This document shows, one piece after another, positions 40,082-43,507 of a DNA stretch of 64,000 bases. A program made the position numbers and the translations under genes. Every line of letters starts with the position of its first letter. Position 1 is the stretch's first letter. Origin of the DNA: a virus (lineage: Duplodnaviria; Caudoviricetes); the IMG/VR virus record IMGVR_UViG_2531839366_000001, positions 1 to 64,000 of that record. One strand, written 5' to 3'. Under the pieces are notes generated by a model. The model searched no databases, was not told where the DNA came from, and saw only the letters and a list, made by a program, of their open reading frames with translations.

Positions 40082-43000
40082 ATGGATGATCATCTATCCC
40101 AAAATGATGTTTTTAAATTTGTAGCACTTAGACCTCCAGCTGCAATAGATTCTGACACGGAGGAAAAAAGATTCATTAAAGACAAAAGGAATCCAGAGGA
40201 TTCTATTGTTCTAAAAGAGATTGACAAGTATTTAGCAGAGGGTGTAGGAGAAGACAAATACTTTTCAACAATTCGAAGCCTCATTACAGAACATGGATAT
40301 TCTCCTGATTTCTCCTTAGAGAAGAATCAAATGTTTTTAGACATAGATAAGCTGGTTAAACAAAGTCAAAAAGAAAGTAATGGACCACAACTGATAAAAG
40401 GAATGGAGTATATATTAGGTGTTGTTCCATCTGAATATATAAAAGCAAATGAGTACAATCAAATACTTAATCATGTATGGGATAGTCTATATGCTTTTCA
40501 TATAATAAATCGGGTTGAGCCAGTCAATCTTGAGAACCTTATTCAGGATCTGAGAATACTTCACATTATTGAATATTGTTCAAAGGAATCCTCGTTTAAA
40601 AATAATATGGAATTAAATGATATTTATGAAGCTATTCCTGTATTGCCAAAACAAGTTTTTACCATTCCGAATAATCCTGGAAGTAAGTCAGAATATCTTA
40701 TTACAGATATTCATAAATCCGAGGAAATGCATTATATAAAGCAACTTCAGGACTTTATTAGATTGTATAAAGCACATGAAGAGATAAAAGCCATTCCAGA
40801 TTATTCTAAGGATGCCTTTAAAATACACGACGCAAATGTGAGAGAAGATAATGATTGGATAGGAGGACATATTAAAAGATGGTTACTAAATGGAGATGTA
40901 GTTAAAAGTTTGAGTGATGATACCAAGTCGGTATTAAAGAACTCAAATTTGAATATTGAAAATGATGGGTTCCTGGAAATTCTCAAAAGCTTGGAAGAAC
41001 AATTACGCATAAAATCGAACAATCTTGTAAATGCTCCCAACTATGATATTTTAAAAGAATTACCTGAAGAAGTTGAAAGTATACCTGGATTAAAAAGTTA
41101 CTTACATTGGATAATTGGAAAATCATCTAATCCTATCACGTCGAAGAACCTTTCTTCTTCTTTGGATCTAAACTTTCCGCATTCCGATATCATACGACCA
41201 CTATCTCCTTTGGACCCAACTTTTTCGAATTCTGGTATTATACGACCGCTGGGAATCGGAGATCTGAAGGTAGTAAAGCAGACGTTGGTAAAGTACGCAA
41301 AAGGGGAAGTAGCCCATATAGAAAATGTGCTACTAGGTGAACATAAGGATAGAAAACATCGCAGGCTAGATCGTACAGAAGAGATATTTATGACAGAAAA
41401 AGAAACAACTGAGGCTGAAGAAAAGGATAACCAGAGTACGGAACGGTTTGAATTAAAACAAGAAACAGAAAAAAACATTCAGTCTGACGAGAGTAAGCAA
41501 GCTGGGATAACAGTTAGCGGAGGCTATGGACCCGTTCAAATTACTGCTCAGGGAAACTATGCTACAAGTTCATCTGTTTCCGAGTCTAAAAGAGCTTCCA
41601 TGAGCTTTGCTAAGGATGTTATTGATCGATCCGTTTCTAAAGTACAAAAGAGGTCACTAGAAAGAAGAACTAGAAAAACACTGCAGGAAATAGAAGAAAT
41701 AAATGAACATGGATTTGATAACAGAAAGGGCAAAGGACATATATCTGGTATTTATAGATGGGTTGACAAGCACTATAAGGCACAGGTTTATAACTATGGA
41801 AGTCGGTTAATGATGGAATTCATTGTACCGGAGCCTGCCGCATTTTATCTTCATAGTAAAAAATATAAACCTTTAACTGGGATGCCAGAAAACCCAAAAA
41901 ATTTAGATATTACTCATAAAGATCTAACAAGTTGGAATTACCATCAATATATAAAGGCGTATAGGGTTCAAGGAGTAAGCCCTCCACCAGCAACCTCCAC
42001 AGTGGTTTCAACCGCTTTAGATAAGCCATCCGCGGAGAAAAAACAGGAGAATTTTGCAAAATCATACAAGGAAATACAGGTTCCTCCAGGTTACCGTGCA
42101 AGATGGAACTATGTTTTGTTCAATTCCATCGGGGATGATGATTCTTGGGCGACTCTTAATGTAGGAATGTGTCTATATGATCTTGCAAGAAAAAACAATA
42201 ATCTTGGTAAAGCTTTATGGCAGGGGATGTGGCATCAGCCAACTGAATTCCAGAGGATATATCTAGATGGAATGATTCCGGTAAGCATTTTAACAAGATA
42301 TATAGATGCGTTCGCTCTGAATATTGAAATTCTTTGTGATGTCACGGAAGAAAGATATGAAGAGTGGCAATTGAAAACATATGACGCTATATTAACAGCT
42401 TATCATACAATGAAGCAGGATTATGAAAGAGCATTAGCATCCCAGACACTAGGAACCGTTATCTCAGGAAACAATCCTGAAATGAACCGGGTTATTGAAA
42501 AAGAGGAGCTTAAAAAGTGGTGCTTAAATCTTTTTACTAGACAAAGTTTCAATGTTTTTAATGCAATGATCTATCCTTCTAACACTACTATTAAGGGATT
42601 ATATCCAGAAATCAATTTGGATATGGCTACGAGTCAGGGGAAATACATCCAATTTTTTGAACAGGCTTTTGAATGGGAGAATATGACCTATCTTTTCTAT
42701 CCTTATTTTTGGGGTAAGAAGGATGATTGGGTAGATAAACTTAACATACAGGACGCTGATCCCCTTTTTACTAAGTTTTTACAGGCGGGTTCAGCCAGAG
42801 TAATTGTTCCAGTTCCACTGGCTTATAGACACGCAGTCTTACATTATCTTGAGACAAGCAGACCTGATAGACCAGGGGATATTTGGAATGGAGGAGATGC
42901 TCCTGTATTAGACGATCCTCTGTATATATCAATTGTAAATGAACTAAGATCTCAACAGGATCCATATAAAGATGCAATTCCAGAGGGAGATCCATGGGAT

Positions 43001-43507
43001 GTTATTATCCCAACCACTTTAGTTTATTTGCAAGAGGATTCAGAATTACCGGATTCAACTAAAGATGGTTATAGGTATTTGAAAATTGAAGGATACGGTG
43101 CATCAGAAGAAGGGCAAGAATCTACAACACGGATAATTGAAGTTGAAGCTTATGTTGGTAAAGATAACATATTAAGGACAACAGACCACACAGTAACAGG
43201 GCAAACACCAAGCAAAGGCTCAATTAATTTAGAAACAATTTATGATGGTGTTAAAACAGCATCTTCAGATTCATACCCTATATGGTGGACTGCAACACCT
43301 AATGGTAATGTTGTTTTTGACTTTCATACCCCAAGAGCGTTAACCAAGTTAGCTTATTTTGGGTATTCTATTCCAGGAGTGCAAAGGGCTTACAGGTTTA
43401 GATTCCTTGGTTCAAATGATAATGTCAGTTGGACTGTATTATGGGATATGTCAACTAATACTACACCCCAACCAATATTGCCTAATGGATATGAGAAGGT
43501 GTTATAA
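40082..43507 (+). CDS. 1141-aa candidate beta-pore-forming toxin with a C-terminal discoidin (F5/8 type C)-like domain
   Basis: Start ATG 40082 (RBS GAAAGGGTG); no signal peptide; central Ser/Thr-rich segment; terminal YDG...WW...VVFDF...FLGSNDNVSWTVL. The ORF is secure; the toxin function is an inference. Confidence 0.5.
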   Translation: MDDHLSQNDVFKFVALRPPAAIDSDTEEKRFIKDKRNPEDSIVLKEIDKYLAEGVGEDKYFSTIRSLITEHGYSPDFSLEKNQMFLDIDKLVKQSQKESNGPQLIKGMEYILGVVPSEYIKANEYNQILNHVWDSLYAFHIINRVEPVNLENLIQDLRILHIIEYCSKESSFKNNMELNDIYEAIPVLPKQVFTIPNNPGSKSEYLITDIHKSEEMHYIKQLQDFIRLYKAHEEIKAIPDYSKDAFKIHDANVREDNDWIGGHIKRWLLNGDVVKSLSDDTKSVLKNSNLNIENDGFLEILKSLEEQLRIKSNNLVNAPNYDILKELPEEVESIPGLKSYLHWIIGKSSNPITSKNLSSSLDLNFPHSDIIRPLSPLDPTFSNSGIIRPLGIGDLKVVKQTLVKYAKGEVAHIENVLLGEHKDRKHRRLDRTEEIFMTEKETTEAEEKDNQSTERFELKQETEKNIQSDESKQAGITVSGGYGPVQITAQGNYATSSSVSESKRASMSFAKDVIDRSVSKVQKRSLERRTRKTLQEIEEINEHGFDNRKGKGHISGIYRWVDKHYKAQVYNYGSRLMMEFIVPEPAAFYLHSKKYKPLTGMPENPKNLDITHKDLTSWNYHQYIKAYRVQGVSPPPATSTVVSTALDKPSAEKKQENFAKSYKEIQVPPGYRARWNYVLFNSIGDDDSWATLNVGMCLYDLARKNNNLGKALWQGMWHQPTEFQRIYLDGMIPVSILTRYIDAFALNIEILCDVTEERYEEWQLKTYDAILTAYHTMKQDYERALASQTLGTVISGNNPEMNRVIEKEELKKWCLNLFTRQSFNVFNAMIYPSNTTIKGLYPEINLDMATSQGKYIQFFEQAFEWENMTYLFYPYFWGKKDDWVDKLNIQDADPLFTKFLQAGSARVIVPVPLAYRHAVLHYLETSRPDRPGDIWNGGDAPVLDDPLYISIVNELRSQQDPYKDAIPEGDPWDVIIPTTLVYLQEDSELPDSTKDGYRYLKIEGYGASEEGQESTTRIIEVEAYVGKDNILRTTDHTVTGQTPSKGSINLETIYDGVKTASSDSYPIWWTATPNGNVVFDFHTPRALTKLAYFGYSIPGVQRAYRFRFLGSNDNVSWTVLWDMSTNTTPQPILPNGYEKVL

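Follow-up and report, generated by a model that had tools for sequence, protein, structure and literature searches.

A cassette-bearing element beside the phage lysis genes

The window analysed here, a stretch of 64,000 nucleotides, belongs to a 79,126-bp IMG/VR virus record of a Bacillus phage and carries at positions 40082–43507 (+ strand) an open reading frame whose translation, P0001, is 1141 residues long. Its ATG lies 7 nt 3′ of a AAGGGTGAG ribosome-binding site, and a scan for promoters and terminators gave a site count that did not exceed that of shuffled sequence. A preliminary description of this DNA had singled out the frame together with a set of quoted motifs, and had placed it as mobile-element cargo on a replicon of the B. 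cereus group. We recovered the frame and every quoted motif, and because most of the motifs fall in columns that are invariant or at least 90% conserved when 77 sequences from across phyla are aligned, they are not chance matches. The replicon is this virus record, and the closest relatives are from B. thuringiensis.

The gene is carried by a transposase-less element of 7406 bp (38913–46318) that has TGT...ACA termini and repeated end motifs of ~20 bp, and that is flanked by a 5-bp target-site duplication, GAATC, at 38908–38912 on the left and 46319–46323 on the right, bearing out the description of P0001 as mobile-element cargo. An extra direct copy of the element's left end lies at 45504–45588. 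Termini, end motifs and duplication are all hallmarks of Tn7-like elements; no TnsA/B/C-type gene was found among the ORFs of at least 100 aa in 38913–46318, which comprise P0001, a stub, a partner gene and two antisense ORFs inside them. Insertion has split a phage gene, putatively YolD-like, into a 5′ part (38817–38912, + strand) and a 3′ part (46319–46581) recognised from their translations, and the homologous gene at the B. thuringiensis locus L007 is interrupted at the same position. The site separates the lysis module of the temperate phage from its replication module and is adjoined by holin and endolysin genes; for this phage the insertion amounts to a transposon-borne accessory cassette beside the lysis genes.

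The ORFs downstream of P0001 had been mentioned earlier and are indeed present, but their nature, a partner effector and a gene remnant, had been missed. The candidate effector is P0262 (387 aa; 43888–45051, + strand). It has a hydrophobic, Gly/Ala-rich C-terminal tail (residues ~310–385) and the invariant residues C10, D121, E137, C225 and H259, and its family has 31 members, all checked ones of which adjoin genes of the P0001 family. The GC content of its gene is 46%, compared with 32–38% around it. Between P0001 and P0262 lies a 101-aa ORF (43586–43891, + strand) that consists of ~73 N-terminal and ~28 C-terminal residues left from a second gene of the family, the internal part being deleted: its ends match the N- and C-termini of an intact 967-aa member on a plasmid of B. 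thuringiensis HD-771 (E 9e-10 and 5e-12) and likewise both termini of the Mesorhizobium protein P0106. A weak Trans_reg_C match (E 0.068) had raised the possibility of a regulator, which was dropped in favour of these terminal matches.

The stub is thus what an internal deletion has left of the partner's own core gene. Comparison with the L097 copy revealed no codon-position bias. The stub, which retains its own ribosome-binding site and overlaps the start codon of the partner through an ATGA, still drives translation of the partner. The P0001 gene is 96.8% nucleotide-identical to its B. thuringiensis copy until 32 nt past the stop codon, but the partner is only 55% identical to the partner at that same copy. 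Together, these comparisons show cassette decay and replacement at this locus.

Domain architecture of P0001 and searches for known families

P0001 begins with a helical domain (residues 1–345; 40082–41116, + strand) that AF2 modelled with pLDDT mostly above 80, in line with the helical N-terminal third noted at first. This region varies more than the core of the protein, and an F.F...RP motif near its N-terminus is present in 175 of 260 family members. The conserved core, residues ~380–995, opens with a long β-hairpin region delimited by alignment and AF2 model (residues 385–585; 41234–41836, + strand), which is free of indels over 77 sequences and rich in invariant charged residues. Within it, the family-averaged hydropathy of residues 466–498 (41477–41575, + strand) alternates in a pattern conserved across the family, with period-2 hydrophobic moments in both arms that rank in the top 1–2% of the whole protein. 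This predicted amphipathic hairpin with a YGP tip corresponds to the Ser/Thr-rich alternating segments of the preliminary description. The AF2 model of residues 428–541 has pLDDT below 50, and residues 509–545 score better as an amphipathic helix.

Two further domains complete the core. Residues 636–755 (41987–42346, + strand) are modelled as a jelly-roll or β-sandwich that aligned to many unrelated jelly-rolls (VIA-align Z 7–8); the fold is generic. The following α/β domain (residues 756–990; 42347–43051, + strand), marked by FFEQAFEW...YPYFW, is the most conserved part of the protein, with a mean column identity of 41% in alignment A3 and a model pLDDT of 75.5.

The C-terminal extension (43079–43504, + strand) is a candidate discoidin (F5/8 type C) domain. 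Residues ~1000–1141 matched PF00754 at E=0.023 and 15.3 bits, and the 84%-identical homologue P0003 at E=1.7e-5 and 25.4 bits, both below the Pfam gathering cut-off of 28.2, whereas the language-model feature neighbours of the domain were all discoidin (PF00754) clusters with a score of 0.94. The AF2 model of this part has pLDDT below 50 and is unusable. The terminal lectin-like domain proposed earlier is therefore probable, as a discoidin with putative glycan-binding function, though below the Pfam threshold. It is limited to the Bacillus clade, and C-terminal extensions of at least 100 aa occur in 6 of 259 relatives. Rare fusions onto core proteins comprise discoidin, LysM, DUF3597, DUF5648 and β/γ-crystallin domains, which are surface-binding modules.

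Beyond the weak discoidin match, searches of P0001, the stub and the partner against Pfam, NCBIfam, PHROGs and PADLOC (PADLOC-DB 2.0 in its 2023 version, E≤0.1) returned no family. In P0001, Pfam detected no Binary_toxB, PA14 or Endotoxin_N/M/C domain, and Pfam and NCBIfam no NTPase, nuclease or nucleic-acid-binding domain. Sequence searches of the PDB yielded noise only, whether with the single sequence, with profiles A1 and A6, or with the C-terminal segment alone.

Fold comparisons were equally bare. With the whole model, neither the PDB nor the viral structures of BFVD gave a Foldseek match at E≤1e-3, and VIA-align in wide mode retrieved a generic jelly-roll (Z~8) and helices, nothing else. 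The conserved C-domain alone, compared with PDB folds, stayed at Foldseek E>1 and VIA Z<5. The best Foldseek row was Cry8Ba2 (E 9.4e-3, probability 0.13, TM 0.06, rmsd 46 Å); rows to Cry proteins and to CDTb/Ib together spanned E 0.009–0.09 with probability ≤0.23 and TM ≤0.11, those to CDTb and Ib lying at E 0.03–0.09 and probability ≤0.23. Profiles of the aerolysin and ETX-MTX2 families had no Pfam or NCBIfam match at E≤0.1 and no PDB sequence match; aerolysin-type chains were absent from the Foldseek and VIA rows, for which the hairpin region of the query was modelled at pLDDT <50. MACPF/CDC was absent from the Pfam and fold-search rows, the model again being weak in the relevant region. In two AlphaFold models, then, no toxin fold of known type was found, and the β-pore-forming architecture put forward in the preliminary description found no significant aerolysin, MACPF/CDC, PA-type or Cry counterpart by Foldseek or VIA-align.

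A large family paired with variable partner genes

P0001 belongs to a family with 740 word-index matches and, at E≤1e-3, about 3800 clusters of 50% identity, whose typical member has ~970 residues and which reaches at least ten bacterial phyla and a haloarchaeal plasmid. Its main hosts are Bacteroidia, Actinomycetes and further environmental phyla: among those sampled, mostly in single copy, it was present in 21 of 300 Bacteroidia, 6 of 300 Actinomycetes and 0 of 400 other Bacilli, and is therefore no speciality of B. thuringiensis. A B. thuringiensis plasmid carries one relative, with no cry gene within 9 kb. Viral relatives were confined to 3 loci among the 2.9 million contigs of IMG/VR and zero GenBank phages, on which ground a phage structural protein was rejected. 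Literature searches by motif, locus tag and effector combination did not find a description of the family, and a LodA genome survey makes no mention of a conserved gene upstream; the family is without name, domain model or solved relative.

At 67 of 87 loci, a same-strand gene of at least 200 aa starts no more than 70 nt downstream of the core gene, and these partners fall into more than 15 unrelated families, including patatin (10), PT-TG (7), PAD (arginine deiminase, 6), LodA (5, with LodB-like flavoproteins), PLD, Het-C-like, PhoD and several unknowns. Several of these are known toxin or antimicrobial families, Het-C and PT-TG being domains of toxin systems (Zhang et al. 2012, PMC3482391). 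Partners are 62–69% identical between phyla. A docking domain common to nine partner families was sought and none was found (hhalign probability ≤2%), which fits generic rather than lock-and-key coupling. The longest of the 150 best family representatives has 1265 aa and no relative of 1998 aa or more was found, weak evidence against core–effector fusions. Such tight placement upstream of a swappable toxin-like gene makes the conserved half of an undescribed two-part toxin or defence system a likelier identity than a pore-forming or insecticidal toxin of recognisable kind.

A signal-like N-terminus was found in 0 of 260 family members, confirming on a family-wide scale the missing signal peptide of the preliminary description; none was found in the partners inspected, nor any secretion apparatus in the flanks. 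We recognised no immunity gene beside lipase or nuclease-like partners, and clustering of neighbouring ORFs of at least 150 aa brought out no small downstream gene that is conserved. The flanks of 38 loci were represented by 132 ORFs, of which a handful gave defence-type matches (mad2/3/8, SngC, BrxH, methyltransferase, helicase-type) and the rest were mostly housekeeping, a rough negative for defence islands that lacks a matched control set.

A proposed two-gene conflict cassette and its relation to known systems

The reading that best fits these data makes the P0001 family the conserved half of a conflict cassette, two genes long, horizontally mobile and so far undescribed; its genomic signature lies in toxin-type partner genes that are interchangeable and tightly paired with the core, in transfer between phyla, and in cassettes that decay and are replaced. 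As to mode of action, we propose, with a probability of roughly 0.4, that P0001 supplies the conserved subunit of a two-component toxin that has no export signal and is set free by lysis, and whose second gene encodes a swappable toxic effector. Core and partner would accumulate in the cytoplasm until cell lysis sets both free, by phage lysis in the window and by autolysis or predator digestion elsewhere. Because neither export signal nor secretion apparatus was found, extracellular action has to rest on lysis, which is assumed. Once released, the core protein would oligomerise through its invariant long-hairpin region, bind the target surface, in the Bacillus clade via the added discoidin-like domain, and insert its amphipathic Ser/Thr hairpin into the membrane of the target, thereby admitting, or acting jointly with, the co-released effector. 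That effector would be a putative membrane-inserting protein of 387 aa in the window, and a phospholipase, deiminase, H2O2-generating oxidase or nuclease-like protein elsewhere.

The two-component toxin is favoured by a huge, many-phylum family with an indel-free hairpin region and a conserved amphipathic hairpin, by the 67/87 pairing with more than 15 partner families that include toxin types, by surface-binding fusions, cassette swapping and the adjacent holin and endolysin genes, and by flanks that are mostly housekeeping and hold no defence islands. Against it stand the absence of recognised immunity genes beside lipase and nuclease-like partners, models that match no pore-former in structure, a low-confidence hairpin model whose strongly charged invariant flanks would be unusual for a membrane stem, and a range of effectors (patatin, PLD, nuclease-like, membrane protein) that would suit abortive-infection defence equally. 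The bolder form of the toxin reading is speculative, and we think it rather unlikely: that the family represents a new class of membrane-breaching or protein-translocating machine, unlike known pore-formers in sequence and apparently in fold. Such a machine would need no secretion signal; freed by lysis or predation, it would carry any one of more than 15 unrelated, separately encoded toxic enzymes into a target cell, as a generic two-component toxin platform that spans at least ten bacterial phyla and a haloarchaeal plasmid.

The strongest competitor, possible though not probable, is an abortive-infection or anti-phage module in which the core senses infection or restrains the effector and then releases or activates it, so that the infected cell is killed or arrested. 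Its effectors might be lipases, nuclease-like or membrane-disrupting proteins or oxidases, and in the window it could conceivably act as superinfection-exclusion cargo of the prophage. Cytoplasmic core and partner proteins with no recognised immunity gene would suit such a module, as would effectors of typical kinds (patatin, PLD, a membrane-spanning protein and, by eye, a D...EAK motif in the PT-TG partner), a translationally coupled arrangement with the large-protein gene first, a patchy, mostly single-copy distribution and a Tn7-like carrier in a temperate phage. However, core, stub and partner lack a PADLOC match, the core has no NTPase, nuclease or nucleic-acid-binding domain, the partners share no sensor or docking domain, and defence-type matches in the flanks are few. 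LodA, PAD and Het-C would also be unusual defence effectors, the fused domains (LysM, discoidin, crystallin) are of extracellular type, and relatives are nearly absent from phage collections.

Much less probable is the stand-alone β-pore-forming or insecticidal toxin of the preliminary description, in which P0001 would need no partner to bind a receptor, oligomerise and open a lytic pore, comparable to aerolysin, PA-type or Cry proteins. The conserved amphipathic hairpin, the probable discoidin domain, the lack of a signal peptide as in Cry proteins, the relative on a B. thuringiensis plasmid and the weak Foldseek rows to Cry and CDTb/Ib are compatible with it, but no toxin class matched significantly in sequence or fold, pairing with an effector gene is near-obligate, the family lies mainly outside Bacilli and the plasmid relative has no cry neighbours. 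Neighbouring genes do link the family to toxins; P0001 is the conserved member of a two-gene cassette, and no evidence points to insects. A structural, chaperone-like or enzymatic aid to the neighbouring enzyme (in maturation, scaffolding or a compartment shell), with no role in conflict, would be in keeping with the very strong constraint on invariant aromatic and charged residues, the missing toxin fold and the maturation factors that LodA needs, but is highly improbable given a single conserved protein beside more than 15 unrelated enzyme families, transfer across phyla with partners 62–69% identical, the conflict-gene hallmarks of cassette decay, replacement and mobile-element carriage, and LodA loci that already have LodB-like maturation genes.

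Two outcomes are possible, a component that delivers signal-less toxins or forms a pore for them, or an abortive-infection sensor, and both would be new; either would explain what many orphan patatin, PLD, Het-C-like, PAD and LodA genes do.

Modular abortive-infection systems such as CBASS and Lamassu combine a conserved component with interchangeable effectors, among them patatins, nucleases and membrane proteins. P0001 loci resemble them in this division, in their cytoplasmic proteins and in a patchy, mobile-element-borne distribution, but differ in having no PADLOC match, nucleotide-handling domain, shared effector docking or sensor domain, or clear defence-island context. Three-domain Cry toxins are likewise large and signal-less, with a helical N-domain, β domain and jelly-roll in that order and a B. 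cereus-group host; P0001, in contrast, has no Endotoxin_N/M/C domain, its best row, Cry8Ba2, is insignificant, and its family lies mostly outside Bacilli. Binary AB toxins (anthrax PA, C. difficile CDTb, iota Ib, Bacillus Vip1/Vip2) also pair a separate, conserved large subunit with an enzymatic one, and share a long β-hairpin whose end is amphipathic and aromatic-tipped, as well as a C-terminal domain that may bind a receptor, but the P0001 family has no Binary_toxB/PA14 match, weak Foldseek rows, no signal peptides, and one core family for more than 15 unrelated partner families. Unlike polymorphic toxin systems, which carry the toxin as a C-terminal domain of a conserved protein, the P0001 system encodes it in a separate ORF and has no recognisable trafficking domain or immunity gene; with those systems it shares diverse, recombining toxin modules, Het-C and PT-TG among them, cassette remnants and horizontal transfer (PMC3482391).

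A conserved core protein family of wide distribution

P0001, the 1141-aa core protein (40082–43507, plus strand; a good-quality RBS lies 7 nt 5′ of its ATG), matched nothing in Pfam, NCBIfam, PHROGs, PADLOC or PDB sequences beyond one sub-threshold F5/8 type C match at residues 1069–1127, and our literature search found no description of its family. About 75 nt upstream of the start, a 19-nt unit, TAAATTAAATTGTAATGGT, is present in two and a half exact tandem copies (39962–40007) and may be an operator-like site. A word-index search recovered 740 relatives, and HMMER, run exhaustively on 1.84 billion cluster representatives, gave 3800 family matches at E ≤ 1e-3, with 2217 at E ≤ 1e-30. 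Members are usually ~970 aa long, share 35–50% identity with P0001 across residues ~380–995, and occur in Bacillota, Pseudomonadota, Bacteroidota, Actinomycetota, Chloroflexota, Cyanobacteriota, Acidobacteriota, Myxococcota, Verrucomicrobiota and other phyla. The family extends to Archaea, since a plasmid of Natronorubrum bangense, a haloarchaeon, carries a member in two pieces (NZ_CP031306.1, 570335–572520; 32% identity across residues 267–991). When a C-domain profile was run on one genome per species, the family occurred in 0/400 other Bacilli, 6/300 Actinomycetes and 21/300 Bacteroidia, nearly always as one copy per positive genome. Viral collections are nearly devoid of it (three loci in IMG/VR, none in GenBank phages).

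In an alignment of 77 family sequences, 22 columns are invariant and about 90 nearly so; most of the motifs quoted in the preliminary description fall into these columns, and no aligned sequence has an indel at residues 385–600. A signal-like N-terminus is absent from all 260 members examined, in agreement with the earlier claim that P0001 lacks a signal peptide, and 175 of them carry an F.F...RP motif within the first 40 residues. The core protein is seldom fused to other domains, and every such domain is of a surface-binding type: discoidin (in the Bacillus clade), LysM, DUF3597, DUF5648 and beta/gamma-crystallin. At three Flavobacteriia loci (L043, L044, L046) the family gene encodes just the core (545–594 aa) and a 413–417-aa ORF ends directly 5′ of it, so that a separate gene appears to encode the N-terminal domain. 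About 25 members (alignment A4) have a ~70-residue insertion just ahead of the last conserved strand (PWEV..PT.LV), which matched nothing in Pfam.

An AF2 model built from the family alignment (mean pLDDT 70.5, the C-terminal 150 residues lying outside it) comprises a confident helical domain at residues 1–345, where a helical N-terminal third had been proposed, very long beta-hairpins at 389–583 (428–541 at pLDDT <50), a jelly-roll at 636–755 and an alpha/beta domain at 756–990. Foldseek returned no PDB row at E ≤ 1e-3; its top rows were Cry8Ba2, Cry4Aa, CDTb and Ib, at probabilities of 0.1–0.2 and TM ≤0.1. With VIA-align, 48,161 representatives yielded matches only to helical segments and to the jelly-roll, the latter generic (Z about 8), and a BFVD search was empty at E ≤ 1e-3. 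The most conserved domain, modelled by itself (pLDDT 75.5), had no fold match either (Foldseek E>1, VIA Z<5). No known toxin fold is thus confirmed, though one may yet be masked by the weak modelling of the hairpin region. The Ser/Thr-rich alternating segment reported previously is conserved in family-averaged hydropathy as an amphipathic hairpin at residues 466–498, in which Ser/Thr alternates with hydrophobic residues around a YGP tip. The period-2 moments of its arms are the protein's highest (top 1–2%), and its flanking sequences are invariant and highly charged. Residues 509–545 are more consistent with an amphipathic helix than with a strand.

Partner genes differ between loci

We surveyed 87 loci from genomes and metagenomes for a partner, a same-strand ORF of ≥200 aa starting ≤70 nt from the family-gene stop, and found one in 67, often with the core and partner genes overlapping. 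The partners fall into more than 15 unrelated families, including a Het-C-like cluster (11 partners, best E 3.2e-8), patatin-like phospholipases (10, best E 1e-28), PT-TG proteins (7), protein-arginine deiminases (6, 2.9e-38), LodA lysine oxidases (5, 8.4e-63; followed by LodB-like flavoproteins), PLD (2), PhoD-like proteins (2) and several families without any domain. No signal peptide was found in the partners inspected, and profile-profile comparison found no domain common to the partner families (every probability ≤2%). A Paenibacillus and a Massilia partner are 69% identical, indicating that partners transfer between phyla. The association persists when a PT-TG partner is convergent to the core gene, as seen between Bacillus (L009) and Pseudoxanthomonas partners with 43% full-length identity. 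By eye, two PT-TG partners (L059:8840–10687 and L009:3092–4936) show a D...EAK pattern in the C-terminal half, resembling a PD-(D/E)xK nuclease motif. Genes flanking the cassettes vary by locus and are mainly housekeeping, with a handful of defence-model matches among 132 flanking ORFs.

An exchanged partner on a mobile element

Downstream of the P0001 gene lie a 101-aa stub ORF (43586–43891) and the 387-aa partner P0262 (43888–45051), both on the plus strand. P0262 has a soluble N-terminal part with invariant C10, D121, E137, C225 and H259 and a hydrophobic, Gly/Ala-rich tail (~310–385); its family numbers 31 members across phyla, and those checked adjoin family core genes. Compared with its counterpart in a B. 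thuringiensis genome, the core gene has 96.8% nucleotide identity until 32 nt beyond its stop, whereas the partners share 55% protein identity, indicating that the downstream module was exchanged. A Mesorhizobium protein is more similar to P0262 (62%) than this allele is, and GC content reaches 41–46% across 43400–45200 against 29–38% around it (46% in the P0262 gene, with 32–38% nearby), which together suggest recent import of the stub/partner segment from a higher-GC donor.

Judged by sequence, the stub is a collapsed copy of the core gene belonging to a P0262-type partner. Its residues 9–73 resemble the N-terminus (E 9e-10), and residues 74–101 the exact C-terminus (E 5e-12), of an intact 967-aa member on B. 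thuringiensis HD-771 plasmid p01, whose gene overlaps that of a 383-aa partner 54% identical to P0262; a Mesorhizobium member gave the same pattern. The stub retains its own RBS and an ATGA stop/start overlap and recurs at equal length in a related contig, the two copies showing no codon-position bias; it is probably kept as a translational leader for the partner.

P0001 had been described as mobile-element cargo, and its cassette does lie within a 7406-bp element (38913–46318) that ends in TGT...ACA, carries repeated end motifs and is bordered by a 5-bp duplication, GAATC. The element contains no transposase-sized ORF and interrupts a small phage gene (parts at 38817–38912 and 46319–46581). 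A B. thuringiensis genome (L007:~4514) shows the same end of the element joined to its homologue of that gene at the identical position; this shared site suggests that insertion is site-specific, with a transposase perhaps supplied in trans. A second direct copy of the 85-bp left-end repeat block (45504–45588, 88% identical) sits within the element some 730 bp short of its right end, and could represent a nested end, an alternative one or a composite history. The surrounding virus record spans 79,126 bp. Upstream of the insertion, on the minus strand, is a phage module of GNAT acetyltransferase, MerR/DUF3967 regulator, replication-relaxation and FtsK/SpoIIIE-like genes (34714–37871); from 46.9 kb on, the minus strand also encodes endolysin, holin, tail, tape-measure and head proteins. 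An HNH endonuclease gene (61236–62396, minus strand) sits amid the head and packaging genes.

Candidate functions in conflict

Because the architecture is paired, swappable and horizontally mobile, a conflict function for the core and partner is very likely (about 0.8, toxin and defence readings taken together). An offensive two-component toxin is a tentative first choice, ranked slightly above a defence role: several partner families are known as secreted toxins or antimicrobials, the core protein's fusions are surface-binding modules, its amphipathic hairpin is conserved, partners have no shared docking domain, and the cassettes lack defence-island context, with this one adjoining phage lysis genes. 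An abortive-infection defence module comes close behind; consistent with it are the complete lack of export signals and secretion genes, the absence of recognised immunity genes, carriage on a Tn7-like element within a prophage, and an effector range resembling that of abortive infection. A stand-alone beta-pore-forming toxin and insecticidal activity, both raised in the preliminary description, gained no direct support. Among known systems, a survey of polymorphic toxins counts two of the domains found in partners, Het-C and PT-TG, as toxin-system domains (PMC3482391).
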